From contig JADBKO010000005.1 in NCBI GenBank assembly GCA_014896355.1, positions 34,286 through 98,285 of the forward strand: 64,000 nucleotides of DNA, written 5' to 3'. Position numbers and translations under genes: made by a program. Every line of letters starts with the position of its first letter. Position 1 is the first letter of the stretch. Positions 36,333 through 52,416 of the stretch are shown here, one piece after another. Below the pieces are notes generated by a model, which was given only the letters and a program-made list of their open reading frames with translations, made no database searches and was not told the DNA's origin. This DNA comes from Bacillota bacterium. Its GTDB lineage: Bacteria; Bacillota; UBA5301; Bu52.

Positions 36333-37229
36333 ATGTCATCATTATCTGCTTATTGGCGCAACAGGACACGCCGTGAACAGATGCTCACAGGGTACGCTTT
36401 TGTGGCACCCATTGTCCTATACACCCTAGTCACCGGGTTCATCCCCGTTGTAAGCTCGCTGTATCTGAGCTTCACAAACTACAACATGATGACGCCCGCG
36501 CGTTGGATTGGCCTCCAGAACTACGTTCAGGTCCTCTTCCACGACTCGCTCTTTTGGAGAGCCATGCTCAATACTGCCCAGTACTCTCTGGAGGTCCTTC
36601 CCCTCAATGTTCTTTTTTCCTTGTGCTTGGCCTTGTTGGTGAACCAAAAGCTGCGGGGAATTACAATCTTCCGTACGCTTTACTACCTGCCCGTGGTCAC
36701 CTCCAGCATTGCTGTGAGTATGATCTGGCTCTGGTTATACAACAAGAACTCAGGGCTGATCAACTTGTTTCTGGGGCTTTTCGGGTTGGGGCCTGTCGAC
36801 TGGCTGGGGACGCCGGGCCTGGCGCTGCATTCGCTCGTCTTGATGCGGGTCTGGAAAGGGATCGGCTGGAACATGGTGATCTATCTGGCGGGCCTCCAGG
36901 GGATTCCGAAATACCTGTACGAAGCCGCGGACATCGACGGGGCCTCCGGCTGGAAGAAATTCTCCCAAGTTACCTGGCCTTCGTTGCGTCCGGTGACCTA
37001 CTATATCGTGGTGATGGGGCTTATCAGCACCTTCCAAACCTTTGCCGAAATCTACGCCATGACCAACGGGGGGCCGCTAGGATCCACCACAACCGTGGCT
37101 TATCTGATCTATCAGCGTGCCTTCGGAGCCTTTGACATGGGCAATGCATCGGCTGTGTCTTTCATTCTGTTCGTGGTGATTTTCGGGCTGTCGCTGGTGA
37201 ACGTGAAGTACTTCCAGCCGCAAGACTAA
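36333..37229 (+). CDS. ABC sugar transporter permease (MalF-like)
   Basis: EAA loop EAADIDGASGWKKFSQVTWP. ATG 36333 has a GGAGGG SD. Confidence 0.85.
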   Translation: MSSLSAYWRNRTRREQMLTGYAFVAPIVLYTLVTGFIPVVSSLYLSFTNYNMMTPARWIGLQNYVQVLFHDSLFWRAMLNTAQYSLEVLPLNVLFSLCLALLVNQKLRGITIFRTLYYLPVVTSSIAVSMIWLWLYNKNSGLINLFLGLFGLGPVDWLGTPGLALHSLVLMRVWKGIGWNMVIYLAGLQGIPKYLYEAADIDGASGWKKFSQVTWPSLRPVTYYIVVMGLISTFQTFAEIYAMTNGGPLGSTTTVAYLIYQRAFGAFDMGNASAVSFILFVVIFGLSLVNVKYFQPQD

Positions 37230-38156
37230 TGGTTACTGGGGGCGAAAATGTGGCACAGACAGTGGTCTACGGACGGCTCGCCGGGCGCGAATTCCGGTTT
37301 GCCGTTCGCAAGCTGGGCACTTACCTGGTTTTGACATGTGTGGCGGTGGTGATGGCGGCGCCGTTCCTCTGGATGCTGCTCAGTTCGTTCAAACCAGACG
37401 CCGAACTCTTTGCCTATCCGCCGGTATGGCTGCCCAGGCACGTGACACTTCAACACTATATCGACGCCTTCTCGCATTCCTTGTTCGCTCGCTATTTCTT
37501 CAATAGCCTGGTGGTGACGGGATTGGCGACTGTGGCAAACCTGTTCTTTTGTGCCCTGGCCGGGTATGCCTTCGCCCGCCTGGACTTTCCCGGGCGAGAT
37601 GTGATCTTTTACGCTCTACTGGGGACCATGATGATCCCGGGTTATGTTACGCTGATCCCCCTGTTCATCATCGTCAAGAGCATTCCTTTCGCCGGGGGGA
37701 ATAACTGGTTAGGGCAGGGCGGGACGGGTTGGGTGAACACCTTGCCGGGCCTCGCGTTTCCTTACCTGATGAGTGTTTTCGGGGTTTTTCTTGTCCGCCA
37801 GTTCTTTCGGACGATACCTACGGATCTTAAACGACGCAGCACGTATTGATGGTGCCTCGGAGTTTACGATTTTCTGGCGTATCTACGTACCGCTGAGCCG
37901 CCCGGCGCTGATGACTCTGGGTATTTTCAGCTTCACCTCCGTGTGGGATGATTTTCTTTGGCCACTGGTCATCACGAATACAGAAGCCATGCGCACAGTC
38001 CAACTGGGGCTTCAGACGTTCCAGAGCCAGTTCTTTACAAATTGGGGAGGGCTGATGGCTGCCACATTGGTGGTGACGGTGCCAACTTTGTTGATTTTCA
38101 TATTCGGCCAGAAGTACTTCATTGAGGGAATTGCTACCGGCGGCATCAAGGGCTAA
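37229..38156 (+). pseudogene. ABC sugar transporter permease (MalG-like) broken by a +1 frameshift near 37829-37831
   Basis: Track ORFs 37229-37849 and 37773-38156 are two halves of one permease. The EAA loop reads ...FFRTIPTDLK|RRSTY* in frame 1 and continues ...LNDAARIDGASEF in the other frame. An extra A in the run cttAAAcgac explains it. Confidence 0.7.
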
Positions 38157-38204: not shown

Positions 38205-40043
38205 TTACTTGTCGCTGACCTCCTGCCGTCCAGAAGGAGTGAGCAGCGTCGGTACAAGCTGCACGAACGCTTGCACCAGCTCCGGGTCGAACTGCGTGCC
38301 GGCGTTGGCCAGCAGCTCTGCTTGCGCTTCAGCGAACGTGAGGCCGGGGCGGTACGGCCTGCTGGTGGTCATTGCGTCGAAAGAGTCGGCGATGGCCAGA
38401 ATCCGGGCCACGACCGGTATTTGCCGGCCTTTGAGCCCAGCGGGATAACCCCGGCCGTCAAAACGCTCGTGGTGGTGTCGGATGGCTGGCACCAAAGCTT
38501 GTAGCTCCGCCACATGACCTACGATACTGACACCCCGGTCTGGGTGGGTGCGCACGATCTCCCACTCTTCAGCCGAAAGCCGCCCTGGCTTGCCCAAAAC
38601 ATGGTCCGGGACTGCCAGCTTGCCGATATCATGCAGCAGCCCGGCGGCAAAGACCTGGCGCACGAGCTCCGGTTTCCATCCCAGGGCCTGTGCCAGGCGG
38701 CGGGCGTAACGCGCCACACGCTGAGAGTGGCCGCGGGTGTAAGGGTCGCGAGCATCGATGGCCGCCGCCAGGGCAGCCACGGTCCGGGTGTGCAGACGCC
38801 ATAGATTGTTGCTTAGCAGCGAGGCGCCCAGGGAGGCGCCGCTTAAAATCGCCAGGGACCGCAGGAACCGTTGCTGATTCTCGGAAAACGGCCGCCCGTC
38901 CCGGCGGATGGCTTGAAGCACGCCTAGCCGGCGGGGGCCGGAGGACATGGATATGCTGAGGGCCGCGAAAGAGGGGTCAAGGATTGGTTCGCCCGATTCC
39001 AGCGCCCGCTGAGCCTGAGCCAAGAGCGCATCGCGGGCGGGTGCTTCCGGGAATGAGCCGGGCCGCGCCTCGTCCGGCGTCTTGGATCGTGGGGCGCCCA
39101 TCCCACGCCATGCCTTCAGGGCCACCGTGGTATCCGGCCCATGAAGTGGCCCGGCCGGTCCGCCCGGCCCCTCCACGACAGGCAGTCCCGTTTGCCGGGC
39201 CACCGTTTCGTCCAAATAGATTGCAGCCTCGTCGGCGCCGGCCAAGCCAGCCACCGCATCCACGGTGAATTGTAGAATTTGGGAAGGAGTTAGACCTGTG
39301 ACCGCCTCCGCCAGGCTCTCCAACGCCGCTGCCGTGGCTTCGGATTCCTGGCGCTTCATGCGGTCCCGAAAGTGCGTCCAAAGCCACGCTGCTTCGCGTC
39401 CCACCACAAGAAGGAGCTCCAGCAGAGAGTTTGCCGGGGGTACCGGGTCTTCCGGCCCCTGCAGCACCAGGAACAGACGGGCGGGCGGGGACCCGCCAGG
39501 GCCGTGAAAAGGGACGCTGTACAGCCTGGCCGGCGGTCCGGCTGGCAGCAGCTCCCGCAGCTCTCCCCCAAGGGGTTGCCGGGCCAGCCGCGTACCCGGA
39601 CCAAAATGAGACGGGTTGGCCAGGCTTTGCACCACCGCTGGCGGCAGGTTCCAGACGCTCACCGCCACACCGGCAGGGATTTCCGCCGCGTGGCCTTCTG
39701 CCGCGTAGTCTTCTGCCGCGTGGCCGGTTAAAAAAGGCCCCCCAGCCCGGTCCATTTCATCGGACCACGCTGCTTGGTCCTGGCCGTACAAGGCGAGCAG
39801 CGCGCCGCAGGAACTGGATCTGGGGATGAGTCCGCTTTCCTGTGCAAAGCGACAGAACTGCTCGAGGAGCCATGCGACGGCCCGCTCCCCCATAGACGAG
39901 CGTTGGATTGCAGTGGCGGTCCACTCCTCCAGACGGGGAAGACTCCGGGTCAATCCCACCGTCTCAACCTGAGCTCCAAAGGGGGCTGGAGTTTGCCCGC
40001 CGCCCATGGAACGCTCGTCTCCGCTCGTGGAAGCTCGCAGCAC
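38205..40043 (-). CDS. GAF-domain HD-GYP phosphodiesterase-like signalling protein
   Basis: C-terminal HD-GYP domain (LLHDIGKLAVP, HHERFDGRGYPAGL). The start is uncertain. Confidence 0.8.
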   Translation of the reverse strand: MLRASTSGDERSMGGGQTPAPFGAQVETVGLTRSLPRLEEWTATAIQRSSMGERAVAWLLEQFCRFAQESGLIPRSSSCGALLALYGQDQAAWSDEMDRAGGPFLTGHAAEDYAAEGHAAEIPAGVAVSVWNLPPAVVQSLANPSHFGPGTRLARQPLGGELRELLPAGPPARLYSVPFHGPGGSPPARLFLVLQGPEDPVPPANSLLELLLVVGREAAWLWTHFRDRMKRQESEATAAALESLAEAVTGLTPSQILQFTVDAVAGLAGADEAAIYLDETVARQTGLPVVEGPGGPAGPLHGPDTTVALKAWRGMGAPRSKTPDEARPGSFPEAPARDALLAQAQRALESGEPILDPSFAALSISMSSGPRRLGVLQAIRRDGRPFSENQQRFLRSLAILSGASLGASLLSNNLWRLHTRTVAALAAAIDARDPYTRGHSQRVARYARRLAQALGWKPELVRQVFAAGLLHDIGKLAVPDHVLGKPGRLSAEEWEIVRTHPDRGVSIVGHVAELQALVPAIRHHHERFDGRGYPAGLKGRQIPVVARILAIADSFDAMTTSRPYRPGLTFAEAQAELLANAGTQFDPELVQAFVQLVPTLLTPSGRQEVSDK

Positions 40044-40107
40044 GTTTGTCGAGGCCCCGATCTGCGGGTGGACATTCGCGGTGGAAGGCCTCTTCCTCCC
40101 TTACCGA

Positions 40108-40470
40108 TCAAAGGTGTGGCGAGCCCAGGCTTTGAGCGCCATCCGTTTCTTCGTCCGCGGTTTCGGCCTCCTCCTCGTCGGCGGCAGGCCCGATGGGCTG
40201 CACCACCGGCGGGGAATAACGATAGACCGCACTGCGGCGCGGCGCTGCCTTAGGCAGCCCCTGGCTTTCGCCCTGCTTGGTCAAGATGCCCCGCTCCACC
40301 AGCCTCTGAACCGCCAACGCCACAAGCCCCGGGTCACGGCCCACCCGCGACGCAATGCCAGGCAGAGTGTCGGCCAAGCCCACGTTCCGCTGGAACAGCG
40401 CCATGACCTCCACCTGCACGCGGGTAAGGAGGGCTTCATCCTCCGTGGCCAGGCTCGGTGTCCCCTCCAA
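40108..40470 (-). CDS. Small winged-helix protein (120 aa), hypothetical regulator
   Basis: High-GC3 ORF with an AAGGAG SD. Helix-turn-helix-like TLPGIASRVGRDPGLVALAVQRLVERGIL and an acidic tail. It lies immediately upstream of and co-oriented with the HD-GYP gene. Confidence 0.5.
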   Translation of the reverse strand: MEGTPSLATEDEALLTRVQVEVMALFQRNVGLADTLPGIASRVGRDPGLVALAVQRLVERGILTKQGESQGLPKAAPRRSAVYRYSPPVVQPIGPAADEEEAETADEETDGAQSLGSPHL

Positions 40471-40684
40471 CTCCTGCTCGCTCCTTTCTACGTCGTGGCG
40501 GGATACGCGGCGCTTGCCCTCGCGCTTGCCCTACACGTGCTCTGTAGAAATGATTCCAGCTGTCGATAGCAGAATCCTTCCACGGCAGGAAATCCTTGGA
40601 AATCCCAGAAAATTATCTAGCAGGACGCCGCGGACGGGGGAAGGGACGTCCGGGTGAGGCGAAATCTGGAGGTGCAAGCCCAAA

Positions 40685-42418
40685 GTGTCAGCCAGTGAAC
40701 GTGTGACCACCGGCGTGCCTCAACTGGATGAGGTCCTGGAAGGAGGCATTCCCCGGAACTCTCTCGTTTTGGTGTATGGCGGTCCCGGCACGGGCAAAAC
40801 CACCCTGGGCCTGCAATTCCTGGTGGAGGGCACCCGCCGCGGTGAGCCGGGGTTATTGGTGACCTTCGAGCAAATGCCGGAGCAGCTCTACCGGGATTTC
40901 GCACCCTTCGGATGGGATCTTCCGGGCCTGGTGCGGCAAAAACGCCTACAGATCCTTTGCACTTCCCCGGGCACGCTTTGGGAGGACCTCCTGAGCCCCG
41001 GCGGGATGGTGGAGGAAGCGTTCCGCCAACTGCGCGTGCAGCGCCTGGTCATCGACCCCATCACCTTGTTGGCCTGTGCCGGGGCTGTGGATGCGGGCTG
41101 GGCCCCGGCCGCCGGGGCGGCCCCAGGGTCCCCAGGGCTGGCAGCGGAGGCAGCGGCTGAAATCGCGGCCACGGGGCCTGCGCCAGCGGCGGAGGCCACG
41201 CCGTTGGCAGGAAGGGGCGCAGCCGCGGGGCTGGGCGCACCGTCTCCGGCCGGCGCGCACCCCTGGGCCAGCTCGCGCACGCGTATGTACGCAGTTTTCA
41301 ATGCCCTGCGCCGCCTGGGGGCCACTGCGCTTCTGTTGGCGGAGGCCCCGATGGCCGGCTGGGCCGGCGATGCGGGGCTCTCGGGCAGGAGTGGGCCGGA
41401 CGGGGGAGATCCCGGCGTGGCCGGTTTCCTGGCAGACGGCATCCTGGAACTGAGTTTCCCCTATGTGGATGTAGGCAGGAGCAGCCGTAGCCAGGAGACG
41501 GGCCTGGATGCGCAGGCGGCGGGCGGCGGCGCCATGGCCAGCCTGGCTGCCAACAGACGCAGGTTTGTGGAGGTGTTGAAGATGCGGGGCAGCGGCTTCG
41601 TGCCAGGCCGGCATCTAATGCGGTTTGATATCACTGGCTTGGCGTTGGTGCGGCCCCTGACCCGCATGCAGTCCGGGCGACGGGCGGCGCTGGAGAGCCC
41701 CGCCGCGGCGATCCCAACGGGCCTGCCGCTGTTGGACGACGCTCTGGGCGGGGGATTCCCGCGCGGGGCCACAGTTTTGTTGGACGTGAACGGCAAGGCC
41801 GACTATTATGATCTGGTGGGCCTGCTGATCCATCGCTGGTATGCCGCCGGGGCCAACCTCTACCTGCAGCCGTCCAGCCTGGTGGGCCCCATCGAGATTG
41901 TGGAAAATGTGCGGCGCCAGGGCAGCGATTTGCTGGAAGGCGCAGCCCAGGGGCGGATCCTGCTGGCGGAATACTTCAGGCGCCCGCTGCTGCCGGAACT
42001 GGAGAAATGCCTGATCCGCGGCTGGGAGATGAGCGACCGGGAGGCTTTGTCGTGGGTGCGGCAGTTCTTCGCCGAGTACATGGAGCCCGATGCACAGCGG
42101 GGACGGCCCTGGCTGATCTATCGGGATCTCAACACCCTGGCCGTGGCGCGGGGCAGCAAATACCTGGTGCAGGATTTCGCCGCTGCCACTTCCTGGGTTC
42201 GCGCCTGCCGCGGCGGTTATTTGGCCTTGGTGAACATGGAGGAGATCAGTCCTCATCTGGGGTCGTTTTTGGAGCGTACGGCCTCCGTGGTGGTGCGCAC
42301 GTGGCGGACCCAGCGTTATCAGTTTCTCCAGGTGGTCAAAGCCTTGGACGGACATGTAACGGATGCTCTGGTGGTGGAGCACCAGCCCGACCCGCCATAT
42401 ATCCGGCTCCTGGACTAA
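40685..42418 (+). CDS. KaiC-like RecA-superfamily ATPase with an intact N-terminal KaiC domain and a degenerate second domain
   Basis: Domain 1 has GVPQLDEVLEGGIPRNSLVLVYGGPGTGKTTLGLQF and Walker B LVIDPI. Domain 2 (LPLLDDALGGGFPRGATVLLDVNGKADYY) has lost the P-loop. A long Ala/Gly/Pro-rich linker lies between them. GTG start with a GGAGGTG SD. Confidence 0.8.
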   Translation: MSASERVTTGVPQLDEVLEGGIPRNSLVLVYGGPGTGKTTLGLQFLVEGTRRGEPGLLVTFEQMPEQLYRDFAPFGWDLPGLVRQKRLQILCTSPGTLWEDLLSPGGMVEEAFRQLRVQRLVIDPITLLACAGAVDAGWAPAAGAAPGSPGLAAEAAAEIAATGPAPAAEATPLAGRGAAAGLGAPSPAGAHPWASSRTRMYAVFNALRRLGATALLLAEAPMAGWAGDAGLSGRSGPDGGDPGVAGFLADGILELSFPYVDVGRSSRSQETGLDAQAAGGGAMASLAANRRRFVEVLKMRGSGFVPGRHLMRFDITGLALVRPLTRMQSGRRAALESPAAAIPTGLPLLDDALGGGFPRGATVLLDVNGKADYYDLVGLLIHRWYAAGANLYLQPSSLVGPIEIVENVRRQGSDLLEGAAQGRILLAEYFRRPLLPELEKCLIRGWEMSDREALSWVRQFFAEYMEPDAQRGRPWLIYRDLNTLAVARGSKYLVQDFAAATSWVRACRGGYLALVNMEEISPHLGSFLERTASVVVRTWRTQRYQFLQVVKALDGHVTDALVVEHQPDPPYIRLLD

Positions 42419-42675
42419 GGATTTTGGCCGGACTTTACCCGCGCTGCGAAAAGGGATATGATCCAGGTAGGAACGGAGAACCCCCCGGGGTACATTCTTT
42501 GCAGTGGACTCCCCGGCAGGTACGCCTCCTCCCGGGGGCGGCGGGTGGTCTGTTGATGCTTTGCGGCCGGTGCGTGGGCATACTAGGCCCGGCCAAGCAG
42601 CAGGTCCAAGCAGCCGGCCCGGCGCAGGACCCGGTCCGGCAAGGGGCAGGGAGAGTTTCTTGGAGGGATTGGAGC

Positions 42676-43605
42676 ATGCAAGTGGGTTTGATTGGTCTGG
42701 GGCGGATGGGCTACAATTTGGCGCTGAACATGCGCGATAAGGGCCACCAGGTGGTGGCGTTCAACCGTTCCCCGGAGAAGGTACGCCAGATCGAGGCGGA
42801 AGGGGGCATCACCGGCGCCTACACACTGGAGGAGCTGGTGCAGAAGCTGGCGCCTCCTCGTACAATCTGGATGATGATTCCTGCCGGCGAGGCCGTGGAG
42901 GAGATGATCCGCCGCCTGACCCCCCTGCTTTCGCGCGGCGATCTGCTGATCGACGGGGGCAATTCCTTCTACCAGGATACGCTGCGGCGGGCGGAACAGC
43001 TGCGTCCCACGGGCATCCATTTCATGGACGTGGGTACCAGCGGCGGCATTGAGGGCGCCCGGTACGGGGCGTGCACCATGGCCGGCGGCGACGACGAGGA
43101 CTTCGCGCGCGTCGAGCCACTTTTGCGCGACATCAGCGTGGCGCAGGGGTATATCCACGCGGGCCCGGTGGGCAGCGGCCATTTCGTCAAAATGGTGCAC
43201 AACGGCATTGAGTACGGAATGATGCAGGCCATGGGCGAAGGCTTCGAGGTGCTGGCCAAAGGGCCGTTTTCGCTCAATCTGAAAGAAGTGGCCAGGGTCT
43301 GGAATCACGGCTCCGTGATCCGGGGTTGGCTCATGGAGCTGGCGGAGAGCGCGTTTGCCAAGGATCCCCGGCTGGAGGCCATCCGTGGCGTGATGCACTC
43401 GTCGGGCGAGGGCTTGTGGACGGCGCAGACCGCTTTGAACCTGGGGATCCCGGCGCCGATCATCGCATTGTCGGTCATGATGCGGCACCGCTCGGAGCAG
43501 GACGAGAGTTTTGCCGGCAAGGTGGTGGCCGCCTTGCGCAACGAATTCGGGGGCCACGCCGTGGAGAAAGCGCCGGGGAAAGAGCCAGGGCCTGCGTCCC
43601 ACTGA
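42676..43605 (+). CDS. gnd: 6-phosphogluconate dehydrogenase, short (~300 aa) decarboxylating form
   Basis: MQVGLIGLGRMGYNLALNM Rossmann motif, and a 6PGD C-terminal domain with GHFVKMVHNGIEYGMMQ. The track ORF is extended upstream to 42007. Confidence 0.85.
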   Translation: MQVGLIGLGRMGYNLALNMRDKGHQVVAFNRSPEKVRQIEAEGGITGAYTLEELVQKLAPPRTIWMMIPAGEAVEEMIRRLTPLLSRGDLLIDGGNSFYQDTLRRAEQLRPTGIHFMDVGTSGGIEGARYGACTMAGGDDEDFARVEPLLRDISVAQGYIHAGPVGSGHFVKMVHNGIEYGMMQAMGEGFEVLAKGPFSLNLKEVARVWNHGSVIRGWLMELAESAFAKDPRLEAIRGVMHSSGEGLWTAQTALNLGIPAPIIALSVMMRHRSEQDESFAGKVVAALRNEFGGHAVEKAPGKEPGPASH

Positions 43606-43611
43606 GGGGCT

Positions 43612-45339
43612 GTGTCGAAGACCAAGCCGTGGCAGGATGGAGTCATTGGGATGGGATTGCAGCAAATGGAACAAAGCAGGATCATGCGGGCGGAGGCCGG
43701 CAGGACCGGGCAAGACGCCGGCGCTGCGGCCAATGCTGCGGCCAATGAGGGTCCGGGCGCTGCCGCAGGGGCTGCGCCTCCGTGCACGGTGGTGATTTTC
43801 GGGGCTACCGGAGATTTGGCCCAGCGCAAGTTGTTTCCAGCCTTGTACGGTCTCCATCGGGACGGCCTGCTGGATCCGCGCACGCAGGTCGTGGGCGTAG
43901 GGCGCCGGGAGAAAACCCCTGAGCAGTTCCGCTGTGAATTGCAGGAGTACGTGTGGCGGTTTTCGCGCCTGGCTGCGCCGGCGCGCCAGGCTCAGAGTCC
44001 AGGCGTGGGCGTCCTGCCGCAATGGGAGGATTTCGCCCGCCGCTTCCACTATTTCCGGCTGGAGATGCACGACGCTGAAGGGTATGGCCGGCTGCAGTCC
44101 TTTCTGGAAGAGCTGGAGCAGGCTGCAGGGGTCGGCCGCCGGCGCATCTTTTATTTGGCCGTGATGCCGGATCTCTTCGGCATCGTGACGGGCAACCTGC
44201 GCCAGGCAGGGCTGCTGGAAGCGCCAACACCCGCCCCGGACCCGGCGGCGGCACACGGGGCCGGAAAGGCGAACGGCACCGCAGGTTTGTGGCCGCGGTT
44301 GGTCATCGAGAAACCTTTCGGCTACGACCTGGAATCCGCCGCTCGCCTGAACCGGGAGATCCGCCAGGCTTTCCCGGAGGACGCAATCTATCGCATCGAC
44401 CACTACCTGGGCAAGGAGATGACGCAGAACATCAGCGTCATTCGCTTTGCCAATACCATCTTCGAGCCGGTCTGGAACCGCAACTACATCGACCACATTC
44501 AGATCATGTCCACCGAGACGGTGGGGGTGGAAAACCGGGGTGAGTACTATGATCGCGCCGGCGCACTGCGCGATATGGTGCAGAACCACATGCTCCAGCT
44601 GGTGGCCCTGGTGGCCATGGAGCCGCCCAGCAGCCTGGAATCGGAGGCCGTGCGCGACGAGAAGGTGAAAATCCTCCGTTCCCTGGTTCGTTGGCAGACC
44701 CCACGGGAGGTGGCCCGCAATGCCGTCCGCGGACAGTACGGGCCGGGGCGTGTGGCCGGGCAGGATGTCCCTGGATACCGCTCCGAGCCGGAGGTGCGCC
44801 CCGATTCCCGCACAGAGACTTTCGCCGCCATGCGGCTTTTCGTGGACAACTTCCGTTGGGCGGATGTGCCCTTCTATCTGCGCACCGGCAAACGGCTGGG
44901 GTACAAAGCCACGGAGATCGCCATCCAGTTCAAGCAGCTGCCGCGCATTCTGTATTTCCACGACTACGGCGGCCTGCAGCCCAACCGCCTGGTGATCCGC
45001 ATCCAGCCCGTCGAAGGTGTGTACTTTCAGATCAACGCCAAACAGACCGGCACCCAGACGGAGATGATGCCCGTGGCGATGGATTTCTGCCGCAATTGCG
45101 GCACCACGGCCAACTCTCCGGAGGCGTACGAGCGCCTGCTTTTCGATGTGATGCGGGGCGATGCCACGCTGTTCACCCGCTGGGATGAGGTCTCCCTGGC
45201 CTGGGAATTCGTGGACCCCATTGCCCGGGCTTGGGAGCAGACTACACCGGACTTCCCCAACTACCCGGCGGGATCCTGGGGGCCGGAGGCGGCTCGCAAT
45301 CTGCTGCACCAGGACGGGCGCTCGTGGTGGCCAGAATGA
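43612..45339 (+). CDS. zwf: Glucose-6-phosphate 1-dehydrogenase
   Basis: IFGATGDLAQRKL, RIDHYLGKE, EKPFG and a C-terminal G6PD domain. The real start is probably an internal ATG (43642-43684); the N-terminal ~40 aa are low-complexity. Confidence 0.85.
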   Translation: MSKTKPWQDGVIGMGLQQMEQSRIMRAEAGRTGQDAGAAANAAANEGPGAAAGAAPPCTVVIFGATGDLAQRKLFPALYGLHRDGLLDPRTQVVGVGRREKTPEQFRCELQEYVWRFSRLAAPARQAQSPGVGVLPQWEDFARRFHYFRLEMHDAEGYGRLQSFLEELEQAAGVGRRRIFYLAVMPDLFGIVTGNLRQAGLLEAPTPAPDPAAAHGAGKANGTAGLWPRLVIEKPFGYDLESAARLNREIRQAFPEDAIYRIDHYLGKEMTQNISVIRFANTIFEPVWNRNYIDHIQIMSTETVGVENRGEYYDRAGALRDMVQNHMLQLVALVAMEPPSSLESEAVRDEKVKILRSLVRWQTPREVARNAVRGQYGPGRVAGQDVPGYRSEPEVRPDSRTETFAAMRLFVDNFRWADVPFYLRTGKRLGYKATEIAIQFKQLPRILYFHDYGGLQPNRLVIRIQPVEGVYFQINAKQTGTQTEMMPVAMDFCRNCGTTANSPEAYERLLFDVMRGDATLFTRWDEVSLAWEFVDPIARAWEQTTPDFPNYPAGSWGPEAARNLLHQDGRSWWPE

Positions 45340-45408
45340 CAGCATGCTCCGCTCCGGGCTGGCCGGCCTAGCCGGGGTAGAGCGCGAGACAGGAAGGAAG
45401 GAAGCCTC

Positions 45409-46077
45409 ATGCTCCAGGTGTTCGATATCTCCCTACTCATCTATCCCGGGATGGCAGTATGGAAGGACCGGCAGGAGAAACGTCCCTCTGTGCGGATCAC
45501 GCGGGATTTCGCCGCAGACGGCATTCGGGAGTCCCGGCTGGAGCTGGACTCCCATACGGGCACTCACGTGGATGCGCCCCTGCACATGATGCCTGGCGGA
45601 TCCAGCATTGACCAGCTTTCCGGGCCGCAGCTGGTGGGTCCCGGCCGGGTGCTGGACCTGACGGCTGTGCAAGACCACATCGGCCGGACGGACCTGGAGC
45701 CCTATGCTCGCGTGATTCAGCCGGGTGAATTCGTACTCCTGAAGACCGCCAACTCTCCCGGTCCCCCCTTTGACCCGCACTTTGTCTTCCTGGCGGAGGA
45801 TGGGGCGGCGTTCCTGGCCGGCCTGGGCGTGCGGGGCGTGGGCATTGACGCCCTGGGCATCGAGCGGGATCAGCCCGGACACCCCACCCATCGCATCCTT
45901 TTCCAGCACGGCGTCACCATCCTGGAGGGGCTGCGCCTGCGCCATGTGCCGGCCGGGTCTTACCTGTTGGTGGCTGCGCCCTTGTTGGTGGCTGGAGGAG
46001 ACGCGGCTCCTGCCCGGGTGTTCCTCCTGGGCGAAGGGGCAAAGGAAGGGAGGATTCCCCAGGAAATAGTCGAATAA
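45409..46077 (+). CDS. Cyclase-family protein (kynurenine formamidase-like, pfam04199)
   Basis: HTGTHVDAPLH metal-binding motif. Confidence 0.8.
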   Translation: MLQVFDISLLIYPGMAVWKDRQEKRPSVRITRDFAADGIRESRLELDSHTGTHVDAPLHMMPGGSSIDQLSGPQLVGPGRVLDLTAVQDHIGRTDLEPYARVIQPGEFVLLKTANSPGPPFDPHFVFLAEDGAAFLAGLGVRGVGIDALGIERDQPGHPTHRILFQHGVTILEGLRLRHVPAGSYLLVAAPLLVAGGDAAPARVFLLGEGAKEGRIPQEIVE

Positions 46078-46157: not shown

Positions 46158-47339
46158 TTGCGGGTAGTCATCCGAGTGGATGCGCTGGTCCCCGGCTCCA
46201 GGCTGCTCAGGGATGTATATTCCCAGCACGGAGCCTTGCTCCTGCGTAAAGGGACCATTCTCACCCAGGAGCATGTCCAGACATTGCGGGACCAGCATCT
46301 GGACGAGGTCGTTATCGAACTGGAGGACGGGGGGAACCAGACTCCCCTTTCTGTCGGCGGAGTAGCCCCGGGGGACCCGTCGGCTTCCCTTGCGAGCCTG
46401 GGGCACTCCGGAAGGGTGGCTGTGGCCCGGAGGCCCGGCGGAGCAGCGGCCCCGGCGGCCGACCCGGGCTGGGCGGCGGCACGGTCCAGATCCGAGGCCT
46501 TGCGCCCTTACGAGAATGCCCTGGCTGTGATCCGCCAGGCCACGGAAACCCTGCGGACCAGCGGCGGCCAGGCGTTCCCCGCCCAAGAAGTCGACGCCGT
46601 GGCCGTATTCGTGGTGCAGGAGGCGCGGCGGACCTATCGGGTCCTCTCCCTCTTGGTGCAGTTGCGCCAGGCCAGCGATCCTACTTTTATCCACTCTTTG
46701 AATGTGGCTTTGGTGGCGGGGCTCATTGCCCGCTGGATGGGATGGGGTAAGGACGGCATGCACCAGGCGGTGCAGGCGGGTCTCCTCCATGATGTGGGCA
46801 AGAGCCTGGTGGCACCGGAGATTTTGAACAAACCGGAGCCGCTGACTCCTGCGGAAAGGGCTCAGATGCAGGAGCACGTGCGGGCCGGCTATGAGCTGGT
46901 GCGGAACGCCTCCGAAGTCTCCCAGGACATCGCCCTGGCGGTGCTGCAGCATCACGAGAGGATGGACGGCAGCGGCTATCCCCAGGGCTTGGTGGGCGAG
47001 GAAGCCACCTTTCTCAGCCGGTTGGTGGCAGTGGCGGATGTATACGCCGCCATGATGGCAGACCGGGCCTACCGCAGGCGTCTGGGGCCGTTCCGGGCTG
47101 CAGAGGAGCTGGAAGATGAGTCGTTCAGCCGGCTGGATCCCCAGATCACCCGGGTCTTTCTGGATCGCGTGGCTGCTTTTTATGTGGGTAGTACCGTGGT
47201 ATTGAGCGATGGCCGCGTGGGCCAGGTGGTGTTCATGGATCCGCGCGAGCCCAGCCGGCCGTTGGTCCGGGTCGAAAAGGAGTTCATTGACCTCAGCCGC
47301 CGCCATGAGCTGGAGATCAACGACATCTTGATGCTGTGA
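46158..47339 (+). CDS. HD-GYP domain phosphodiesterase-like protein
   Basis: LLHDVGKSLV, HHERMDGSGYPQGL. Confidence 0.85.
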   Translation: MRVVIRVDALVPGSRLLRDVYSQHGALLLRKGTILTQEHVQTLRDQHLDEVVIELEDGGNQTPLSVGGVAPGDPSASLASLGHSGRVAVARRPGGAAAPAADPGWAAARSRSEALRPYENALAVIRQATETLRTSGGQAFPAQEVDAVAVFVVQEARRTYRVLSLLVQLRQASDPTFIHSLNVALVAGLIARWMGWGKDGMHQAVQAGLLHDVGKSLVAPEILNKPEPLTPAERAQMQEHVRAGYELVRNASEVSQDIALAVLQHHERMDGSGYPQGLVGEEATFLSRLVAVADVYAAMMADRAYRRRLGPFRAAEELEDESFSRLDPQITRVFLDRVAAFYVGSTVVLSDGRVGQVVFMDPREPSRPLVRVEKEFIDLSRRHELEINDILML

Positions 47340-51558: not shown

Positions 51559-52416
51559 GCGCCGGGCATTGGCTGCGAAAAGCTGCGCCTGCCGGTCTGC
51601 ATCCAGGCCTGCGCTTTGCACGTGGCGGACCGCCCGCGGCCAGGAGACCAGTGGATAGTCCGTGGCAAACAAAAGCTTCTCCCACACCCCTGCCGCCGCC
51701 GCGGCTTCGTAAATGGCCGGTCGGTAGAGCAGCGGGGCTGCGGCGGTGTCGTAGTAAACGTTTTTGAGAGCCTGCTGCAGCTCCGGCATGAGTTCGTAAA
51801 ACAGCAGCCCGCCGCCGAAATGCGCCAGCACGAGCTTCAGGCGGGGAAAGGCCTGGGCCAGCGCCACCGCGGCTTGCAGGGGTGTTGGAACCTTGCCGGG
51901 ATAGAGATGTCCCACAGGCTCGTTGAGGTGCAGGATCAGCGGCCATCCCCATTCCTGGCAGGCCTCCGCCACCGGGCCCATCTGATGCGGGTCCCCAGGA
52001 TCAAATCCCTGCCCATAGGCGAAAAGCTCGCCCACCCCTCGTAGCCCCAGGGACCGGCAGCGTTCCAGCTCTGCCACGGCACCCTCCAGCCTGGGGTTGA
52101 CCACGGCGAAGCCCACCAGTTGGGGATAGCGGCGCACTGCTTCCAGGGTATATTCATTCGCCTCCCGGCACAGCCCCTGGTCCCGGAACGCGAAGCCAAA
52201 GACCACCGCCTGCCGCACCCCGTGGGCCTCCATGTCCGCCACCAGTTCCGGGGCGGTAGCATAGCGGTTGTTGGGTGTATGGGCCAGGAGGGAAAAGTAC
52301 GGGTCACGGTCTGCGTAACGGTCCGCCTGGGCTTTGATGGCTGGTGAGGTCAGGTGGACGTGGAAATCCACCAAGCCTGCGGCATCACGTTCCCAACTAT
52401 CTGCCGGAGTTGCCAT
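51526..52416 (-). CDS. Amidohydrolase-2 family metal-dependent hydrolase (TIM barrel)
   Basis: VDFHVHL metal-binding start, and HxH...H...D-like residues (LVLAHFGGG, ATDYP). Confidence 0.75.
   Translation of the reverse strand: MATPADSWERDAAGLVDFHVHLTSPAIKAQADRYADRDPYFSLLAHTPNNRYATAPELVADMEAHGVRQAVVFGFAFRDQGLCREANEYTLEAVRRYPQLVGFAVVNPRLEGAVAELERCRSLGLRGVGELFAYGQGFDPGDPHQMGPVAEACQEWGWPLILHLNEPVGHLYPGKVPTPLQAAVALAQAFPRLKLVLAHFGGGLLFYELMPELQQALKNVYYDTAAAPLLYRPAIYEAAAAAGVWEKLLFATDYPLVSWPRAVRHVQSAGLDADRQAQLFAANARRLLGTLPRESC

Follow-up and report, generated by a model that had tools for sequence, protein, structure and literature searches.

The locus and its genes

We analyzed a 64,000-nucleotide (64-kb) stretch of DNA from an uncultured Bacillota bacterium (assembly GCA_014896355.1, contig JADBKO010000005.1, positions 34,286 to 98,285 of the forward strand), referred to here as the window, and within it a locus of three genes that encode a KaiC-like protein, a small winged-helix protein, and a GAF/HD-GYP protein. 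A preliminary description, made from the sequence and a list of its reading frames, had seen in this locus a divergent signaling module and part of a KaiC-linked second-messenger circuit. The three open reading frames (ORFs) of the module lie at the positions that it gave. The features of the locus are as follows, with positions counted from the first letter of the window and residues as amino acids (aa).

40685-42418, + strand: KaiC-like protein gene; ORF of 577 aa, matching the NCBI hypothetical protein IMW99_02170 from a Firmicutes metagenome-assembled genome (MAG)
40685-41659, + strand: N-terminal ATPase domain, apparently active, aa 1 to ~325
41075-41263, + strand: largest low-complexity insertion of the N-terminal domain, aa 131-193, 73% Ala/Gly/Pro
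41693-42415, + strand: C-terminal degenerate KaiC-like domain, aa 337-577, with DVNGKADY at the P-loop position and the hallmark RTW..-YQFLQVVK
40471-40684, no strand: divergent intergenic region common to both units, 214 bp
40510-40532, no strand: tandem direct repeat GCGCTTGCCCT, two copies at 40510 and 40522, period 12
40588-40607, no strand: direct repeat GGAAATCC, two copies at 40588 and 40598, period 10; candidate operator
40108-40470, - strand: small winged-helix protein gene; ORF of 120 aa
38205-40043, - strand: GAF/HD-GYP protein gene; ORF of 612 aa counted from the GTG at 40043
38838-39290, - strand: GAF domain, aa 252-402; GAF_3 at 30.2 bits against a cutoff of 27 and GAF at 26.0 against 22.4
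38277-38771, - strand: HD-GYP domain, aa 425-589; HD_5 (PF13487) at 148.7 bits against a cutoff of 27.2, E 1.7e-43

A KaiC-like protein with an apparently active and a dead domain

The 577-aa protein, identical to IMW99_02170 of the uncultured Firmicutes MAG, cleared the Pfam threshold for KaiC (PF06745) by a wide margin, scoring 136.2 bits against a cutoff of 26.6 (E 1.4e-39). This score is borne by the N-terminal domain (aa 7-129 and ~200-320, the best stretch being aa 7-129), which aligned with both the CI and the CII domain of KaiC at E values of 1e-23 to 1e-19. Walker A (G32-T39, GPGTGKT) and Walker B (Asp124) are kept there, as had been claimed, together with Glu62 of the catalytic Glu pair and with Lys299 and Arg301 of a K-x-R-G motif, the fingers that in KaiC reach across subunits; over the family alignment, these residues vary little or not at all. 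In a residue-level comparison with KaiC CI, TFEQ stands opposite TFEE and LKMRG opposite LKFRG. Against the NCBIfam equivalogs for clock KaiC (TIGR02655 and NF006799), the protein reached 104 of 408 bits and 78.5 of 546 bits.

The C-terminal domain opens with the usual TGLPLLDDALGGGFPRGATVLLD lead-in, followed by DVNGKADY where GxxGxGKT is expected. On its own it scored 12 bits in the Pfam KaiC model, under the threshold, and a phmmer search with it returned no match to KaiC. A comparison of family C-terminal domains with family N-terminal domains by hhalign gave a probability of 99.1% (E 5e-19) over 182 columns. The AlphaFold2 (AF2) model of the protein (mean predicted local distance difference test score [pLDDT], 84; predicted template modeling score, 0.78), in which the C-terminal domain has pLDDT values of 94-98, aligned with full-length KaiC chains over ~590 columns (Foldseek E ~1e-31). 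With its P-loop replaced, the second domain is a diverged, dead duplicate of the first, and the preliminary description was right to call it dead.

A different picture emerged for the ~90-aa Ala/Gly/Pro-rich linker that had been described. The low-complexity sequence is not interdomain; it is an insertion of 63 aa within the N-terminal domain, after the Walker B strand, and two smaller insertions follow in the same domain (aa ~224-243 and ~262-291). Together the three insertions add ~100 residues that are predicted to be disordered (pLDDT below 50 at residues 142-184, 227-240, and 264-283) and that were found in no homolog. Because the frame is uninterrupted and the model is of high confidence in the structure on either side, we set aside an assembly artefact and take the insertions as real low-complexity expansions.

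A HMMER scan of 1.84e9 (1.84 billion) representative proteins with the C-terminal domain yielded 56 relatives, ~45 of them full-length at 460-500 aa. In nearly all of the ~45, the Walker A motif of the N-terminal domain is kept and the GKT of the C-terminal domain is lost. The family carries the C-terminal hallmark RTWxDGxYQYLQVxKSPxG, and identity between the window protein and the aligned members is 33-38%; among those listed, it alone has the long inserts. A crude neighbor-joining tree put the window protein inside a high-GC group, beside that of one metagenomic locus (L013; L numbers denote the related loci that we gathered), a grouping that is weak. The L013 protein also reached the Pfam cutoff for GvpD_P-loop (26.8 against 24 bits). 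Cultured carriers of the family include Effusibacillus, Mesobacillus harenae, Gordoniibacillus kamchatkensis, and Neobacillus sp. LXY-4. In Effusibacillus consociatus (L018, 8152-8982), the called KaiC-like gene spans no more than 276 aa, and it may be truncated or frameshifted in the assembly.

A minimal winged-helix protein

The product of the small gene is not recognized by sequence profiles: its MarR/HTH matches in Pfam were subthreshold (the best, MarR_2, at 15.6 against 27 bits), and NCBIfam gave none. Its AF2 model (pLDDT 80; core, 85-96) has the topology a1-b1-a2-a3-b2-wing-b3, with helices at residues 8-28, 36-43, and 47-59 and strands at 33-35, 63-66, and 82-85, and the top Foldseek matches were MarR, ArsR, and Z-alpha proteins, at E values of only ~2e-3. 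The protein as modeled is a minimal winged helix, which agrees with its preliminary assignment, and it lacks the dimerization helices of the MarR type. In the window copy, the wing loop is extended by an insert at aa 67-81, and aa 90-120 form an acidic tail that is disordered.

The 120-aa protein is 28-35% identical to products of 79-85 aa that are encoded just 3′ of the KaiC-like genes in related genomes. A profile search of 5.8 billion proteins returned only 30 clusters of this small protein, none with a Pfam domain, whose named sources were Effusibacillus, Mesobacillus harenae, and a Bacillaceae MAG; the small-protein and KaiC-like families thus number ~30 and 45-56 clusters, respectively. 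Wherever flanks allow, the small protein was met only beside this KaiC-like family. Its members are mostly acidic, with a median pI of 4.8 and a net charge of the recognition helix of 0 to -4, which is unusual for a DNA binder. Since the family is acidic, we read the winged-helix protein as one that may serve as a protein adaptor rather than as a DNA-binding regulator. The high-GC subgroup, the window copy among them, shares a basic core and wing.

Three loci carry a second, divergent paralog of the small protein (L011, 10390-10818; L016 and L017, 10500-10772), which lies directly upstream of, and overlaps, the GGDEF-EAL gene that follows the three genes. Such an arrangement is what would be expected if the small proteins are effector-specific adaptors, and it hints in that direction.

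A GAF/HD-GYP protein

The third gene encodes the GAF/HD-GYP protein that had been described: both domain matches are above threshold, that of GAF by a small margin, and the catalytic motifs of the HD-GYP domain are intact (LLHDIGK for HD, and HHERFDGRGYP). The closest solved HD-GYP structure was Vibrio V-cGAP3 (5z7c, E 5e-45), followed by PmGH (4mcw) and PA4781 (4r8z), with E values ranging to 3e-34. Where PmGH has Glu185, its ligand for the third metal, the window protein and V-cGAP3 both have Tyr, which suggests a binuclear site; at the remaining aligned metal-ligand positions, residues are conserved in comparison with 4mcw, 4r8z, and 5z7c.

Pfam found no domain in aa 1-250, and an hhalign comparison of the N-terminal ~230 aa with the relatives gave low-confidence columns only; a first GAF domain in aa 1-250 is a guess. 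The HD-GYP domain and the end of the GAF domain are 47% identical over 204 aa to the third-gene product of L013, and hhalign with the third proteins of the high-GC relatives gave 99.5%, driven by the C-terminal half. We do not claim orthology of the third protein over its full length, because BLASTP of the 612-aa protein against the third protein of L003, which is of the GerE type, found nothing significant.

Candidate starts of the gene are GTG at 40043, ATG at 40007, and TTG at 39953, the last implied by the 582-aa call at NCBI, and the choice leaves the GAF and HD-GYP domains unaffected. A strong Shine-Dalgarno-like sequence, AAGGGAGGAAG, lies at 40093-40103 on the minus strand, right after the stop of the small gene; because no start codon stands at a usable distance from it, the start of the GAF/HD-GYP gene is uncertain. 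A 15-bp unit is repeated three times at 39681-39725, in the orphan N-terminal region of this gene, and encodes a GHAAE-type peptide repeat.

The three genes form a conserved cassette

The preliminary description had made conservation of the adjacency in a relative one of two points on which its proposal would stand, and the adjacency is kept in every relative examined. We gathered 21 loci, which reduced to 14 distinct relatives with useful flanks. In all 13 with enough flank (L001, L003, L005-L009, L011, L012, L013, L016, L019, and L020), the gene for the KaiC-like protein is followed on one strand by that for the small winged-helix protein and then by one for a multi-GAF protein; the 14th, L018, has the same order with its KaiC-like gene at 276 aa. 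A GTDB scan with the small-protein profile confirmed four loci, the confirmation using the divergent window sequence, and the Effusibacillus and Mesobacillus loci were recovered by exact look-up, so that our census of the family is a lower bound. The order is kept across genomes of 33% to 72% GC. At the six loci with called genes, genes 1 and 2 are 11-18 nt apart, and genes 2 and 3 range from a 16-nt overlap to a 6-nt gap, spacing that is typical of co-translated partners.

The divergent arrangement that had been noted is real in the window and is unique to it: only here is the KaiC-like gene inverted, whereas the relatives have a single co-directional operon. Because the KaiC-like gene is divergent, co-translation does not apply to it in the window. 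The window copy is a rearranged, highly diverged member of the cassette.

The usual third protein of the relatives is a (PocR)-GAF-GAF-degenerate HD-GYP-GerE/LuxR regulator. Its HD-GYP remnant, which lies between GAF and GerE and has lost the HD motif, was seen in the third genes of L001, L003, L005-L009, L011, and L016 and in L012 (8185-10068) and L020 (7344-9116); in the last two, the HD_5 profile is still detectable there, making them GAF-HD_5-GerE intermediates. This remnant might act as a receptor for c-di-GMP. In one metagenomic lineage (L013/L015), the protein combines GAF with an intact HD-GYP domain and no GerE, which is the architecture of the window.

We then related the cassette to enzymes of cyclic di-GMP (c-di-GMP) metabolism. 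An HD-GYP or GGDEF/EAL enzyme was fused or adjacent in 11 of the 12 relatives with a readable downstream flank, and in the window as well. An intact HD-GYP domain is fused to the GAF protein in the window and L013/L015, and a stand-alone HD-GYP lies next to the three genes in L003, L005, L007, L018, and L020. Elsewhere the neighbor is PAS-GGDEF-EAL (L001), PAS-GGDEF-EAL-histidine kinase (L008 and L009, with a PAS-GGDEF protein also in L008), GGDEF-EAL (L011 and L016/17), or PAS-GGDEF-EAL-PilZ (L019). Since the type of enzyme differs between lineages, the association looks repeatedly selected rather than inherited as one accident. The GGDEF, EAL, and PilZ neighbors favor c-di-GMP as the substrate of the window's HD-GYP domain, whose sequence by itself does not tell c-di-GMP specificity from cGAMP specificity.

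Genes of sporulation or of partner switching also lie by some cassettes. A Spo0E-like domain is fused to the stand-alone HD-GYP in Gordoniibacillus (L007, 7608-8375), a Spo0E-like gene stands beside the cassette in Mesobacillus harenae (L019, 12072-12278), and STAS-SpoIIE-FapA-STAS genes stand beside it in Effusibacillus consociatus (L018, 12293-15735).

A proposed signaling scheme

Taken together, these data make it likely that the three genes constitute one functional signaling cassette. The best explanation of the locus as a whole, which we hold with moderate confidence, is that an operon conserved within a small group of Bacillota has been rearranged in the lineage of the window. In the scheme that we propose, the KaiC-like protein would form a ring in which the tier of N-terminal domains binds and hydrolyzes ATP and the tier of C-terminal domains, as a pseudo-ATPase, provides a structural or docking platform. 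The winged-helix protein would be its dedicated partner, an adaptor that couples the nucleotide state of the ring to the third protein, and in the high-GC subgroup it may additionally bind the repeats in the divergent promoter. As a GAF-sensor HD-GYP phosphodiesterase, the third protein would here have hydrolysis of c-di-GMP, or less likely of 3′3′-cGAMP, as its output. In most relatives, the GAF-GAF-(degenerate HD-GYP)-LuxR/GerE regulator would take its place, with transcription as the output and a separate c-di-GMP enzyme adjacent. For the specific route from adaptor to phosphodiesterase, we see the chances as about evenly balanced, perhaps slightly in its favor. The conserved synteny and the recurrent c-di-GMP genes support the second-messenger circuit of the preliminary description, with the corrections given here.

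Several points weigh against this scheme. In the window protein, Glu63 of the catalytic Glu pair is replaced by Gln, and its ATPase might suffer from the three disordered insertions. Transcription of the KaiC-like gene in the window is separate from that of the other two genes and runs the opposite way. The core of the window's winged-helix protein has a net charge of +6 and its wing is basic (+4), which fits DNA binding equally well. A homolog search with aa 1-420 of the GAF/HD-GYP protein returned only the protein itself, and nothing significant linked the whole protein to that of L003, so that orthology of the third gene is argued from the HD-GYP and second-GAF region and from position, not from the full length. 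The closest solved HD-GYP, V-cGAP3, is cGAMP specific. One relative, L006, has a receiver-domain gene instead of a nearby c-di-GMP gene, and because the loci are related by descent, the counts overstate their independence. Finally, the contacts among the three proteins are ones that we only infer, as are ring formation, ATPase activity, the direction of control, the substrate, and DNA binding.

The intergenic region and an autoregulatory alternative

At 57.9%, the GC content of the 214-bp intergenic region is lower than that of the window (64.1%) and of the flanking genes (66-67%). The region is thus AT-richer than its surroundings, as had been described, to a modest degree: 14% of 214-bp segments are equally or more AT-rich. 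Both of the direct repeats that had been reported are present in it, and first-order Markov simulations put the P of a close repeat of at least 11 nt at ~0.001 and that of two runs of at least 8 nt at ~0.0007. Read by eye, each copy of GCGCTTGCCCT holds TTGCCC, a -35-like hexamer on the plus strand, and on the minus strand a -10-like element, GATAAT, is closely followed by the GGAAATCC pair. On the strand on which it is written here, the GGAAATCC 8-mer occurs just once more in the 64-kb window, at 52362. A scan for the sigma-70 consensus found no promoter in the intergenic region, and no -35/-10 candidate read by hand matched at more than 8 of 12 positions. The regions that precede the relatives' operons had no motif in common with the window repeats, which for this reason cannot be called a conserved operator.

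These repeats bear on the most serious alternative, in which the locus is an autoregulatory circuit: the winged-helix protein, as repressor or activator, binds the repeats and controls both units, the KaiC-like ATPase modulates it (e.g., by sequestration or phosphorylation), and the GAF/HD-GYP protein is merely co-expressed. The fold of the small protein, nearest to MarR and ArsR, would suit such a role, as would the +6 core and basic wing of the window copy, two sets of close direct repeats that exceed chance expectation, the place of the GGAAATCC pair by the GATAAT element, and the precedent of haloarchaeal CirA/CsmR (PMC13286277). Most family members, however, are acidic, with a recognition helix that has no basic residue; the dimerization helices are missing; every Pfam HTH model stayed subthreshold; and neither a promoter consensus in the intergenic region nor a motif in common upstream of the relatives' operons was found. 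We consider this alternative unlikely, and it stays alive because the window copy has a basic core.

Other alternatives

A KaiC-type timer, a clock or hourglass in which rhythmic autophosphorylation gates c-di-GMP turnover daily, is far less probable still. The best sequence and fold matches of the window protein are indeed to cyanobacterial and designed KaiC structures, and the ATPase motifs of its N-terminal domain are intact. In KaiC, both the autokinase site and the sites of phosphorylation are located in CII, but the equivalent domain here has no P-loop and no longer matches KaiC by sequence. Further, neither KaiA nor KaiB is encoded beside the module, be it in the window or at any related locus, all of the neighboring genes having been assigned to other families, and the NCBIfam score of 104 bits is well short of 408.

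We give equally little credence to a chance juxtaposition of unrelated neighbors, with the KaiC-like protein belonging elsewhere in the RecA superfamily, e.g., to RadA-like DNA repair. The genes do lie on opposite strands in the window, and weak RecA, RadA, and DnaB matches arise through the common P-loop region, but these are confined to aa ~4-70 and fall far under their cutoffs. Conservation of the gene order from 33% to 72% GC and the restriction of the small protein to the side of this KaiC-like family, where flanks allow, speak against coincidence. Least probable of all is an antiphage defense or cyclic-oligonucleotide system with the HD-GYP domain acting on cGAMP-type signals, for although V-cGAP3, the nearest solved HD-GYP, acts specifically on cGAMP, PADLOC gave only HD-motif matches to Cas3 and weak P-loop matches, the window neighbors are housekeeping genes with no mobile-element features, and the GGDEF, EAL, and PilZ genes near the relatives are c-di-GMP machinery.

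Comparison with known systems

Like cyanobacterial KaiC (2gbl, 1tf7, and 7s65), the window protein has two tandem RecA-like domains, with conserved motifs in the N-terminal one, and aligns with it over the whole model. Unlike KaiC, it has a second domain that lacks a P-loop and is unrecognizable by sequence search, three disordered inserts, and no KaiA or KaiB neighbors. With scores far below the NCBIfam equivalog cutoffs in addition, it therefore does not belong to the orthologous group of clock KaiC.

A closer parallel comes from Archaea, where, to our knowledge, c-di-GMP plays little part in the KaiC picture. Inactivated KaiC domains (iKaiC) and KaiC-like ATPases have there been proposed as signaling hubs, according to a later paper (PMC5847659) that cites Makarova, Galperin, and Koonin (2017). 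As portrayed in that citing paper, these hubs resemble the window family in that a KaiC ATPase and an inactivated KaiC-like domain are set in a context of sensor and output domains, as a hub and not a clock; the window family differs in being bacterial (Bacillota) and in having a fixed three-gene operon, a mini winged-helix partner, and c-di-GMP enzymes. A bolder version of our scheme, which we regard as speculative, would make the cassette a Bacillota counterpart of the archaeal hub: a ring with live and dead ATPase tiers would dock interchangeable effectors (the GAF-HD-GYP phosphodiesterase, the GAF-LuxR regulator, and the GGDEF-EAL enzymes) through mini winged-helix adaptors, and slow ATP turnover would gate c-di-GMP signaling and transcription. 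Such a device might act as a noncircadian timer or energy-state switch for decisions on biofilm, motility, or sporulation.

Two haloarchaeal pairs offer a further likeness. GvpD, with a RecA/KaiC-like P-loop, acts on the activator GvpE. In Haloferax volcanii, the KaiC-like protein CirA is functionally coupled to the wHTH regulator CsmR (PMC13286277). Both pairs join a KaiC/RecA-like ATPase with a partner of the transcription-factor type, as the cassette does, but they are archaeal, stand in no fixed operon with GAF or HD-GYP proteins, and have partners that are unrelated in sequence.

The KaiC homologs of Pseudomonas are likewise noncyanobacterial and tied to biofilm-type lifestyle decisions, a physiology governed by c-di-GMP. 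They are reportedly of the KaiBC type, with two active domains. An effect of these proteins on stress resistance and biofilm has been described (Terrettaz et al. 2023, as referred to in PMC13286277). Our literature search found no genomic link of the Pseudomonas genes to HD-GYP or GGDEF genes. Of the output enzymes, the RpfG-type HD-GYP phosphodiesterases (4mcw, 4r8z, and 5z7c) share with the window protein the HD and HHExxDGxGYP motifs and, apart from the Glu185 position of PmGH, the aligned metal-ligand positions, and the window protein departs from them in a sensor that is GAF and not REC and from PmGH in the Tyr at the Glu185 position, which V-cGAP3 has as well.

In the searchable literature on KaiC in combination with c-di-GMP, HD-GYP, GGDEF, or winged helices, we met no description of the cassette; the work of Makarova et al. 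(2017) was covered through papers that cite it. KaiC-superfamily ATPases are widespread outside cyanobacteria, with functions largely unknown, and reports of inactivated KaiC domains come mostly from Archaea. Against this background, the cassette is a compact, testable case: a single ATPase with one very small partner and one sensor-effector, with a readable output (c-di-GMP hydrolysis or LuxR-type transcription) and cultured carriers. If the scheme holds, it would bring a new type of input to Gram-positive c-di-GMP networks, namely control that depends on the nucleotide state of a KaiC-like ring or on time kept by it, and it would show a signaling use of a pseudo-ATPase tier and of winged-helix adaptors. 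The value of the window alone is more modest, as a divergent, rearranged member from an uncultured organism.

Neighboring genes

Two genes farther downstream had been drawn into the circuit by the preliminary description.

45409-46077: PF04199/arylformamidase-like gene
46158-47339, + strand: second HD-GYP protein gene, 393 aa, with a weak DUF3391-like N terminus

The KaiC-like gene is followed on its 3′ side by 6-phosphogluconate dehydrogenase (6PGDH)-like and glucose-6-phosphate dehydrogenase (G6PDH) genes, then by the PF04199 gene, and then by the second HD-GYP gene. The product of 45409-46077, which had been called a cyclase-family protein, matched PF04199 ("putative cyclase") and TIGR03035 (arylformamidase), the latter under its own cutoff, and has no GGDEF or class III cyclase domain; we reject it as a nucleotide cyclase. 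The second HD-GYP gene is present as described but lies 3.7 kb downstream of the module, from which the two pentose-phosphate genes and the PF04199 gene separate it. The stand-alone HD-GYPs of the relatives are closer to the window's fused HD-GYP domain than to this protein. On account of that resemblance and of the intervening housekeeping genes, we reject both downstream genes as core parts of the module; the second HD-GYP protein is possibly an accessory at most. No other KaiC-like, GGDEF, EAL, or GerE-type relative was found elsewhere within the 64-kb window.

An ORF of 920 aa (42583-45345, - strand) runs antisense to the 6PGDH-like and G6PDH genes and lacks an independent coding signal; it is probably spurious, an effect of high GC content. 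The upstream neighbor of the module is a sugar ABC transporter, whose second permease is broken up into two ORFs that overlap and differ in frame (37229-37849 and 37773-38156, + strand), with a BPD_transp_1 match in the second only; a frameshift, a pseudogene, or an assembly error would each account for the split. Rfam and tRNA scans gave nothing at the module locus, and the sole Rfam match in the window was a SAM riboswitch (RF00162) at 2569-2683 on the minus strand, which scored 86 bits against a gathering score of 44.

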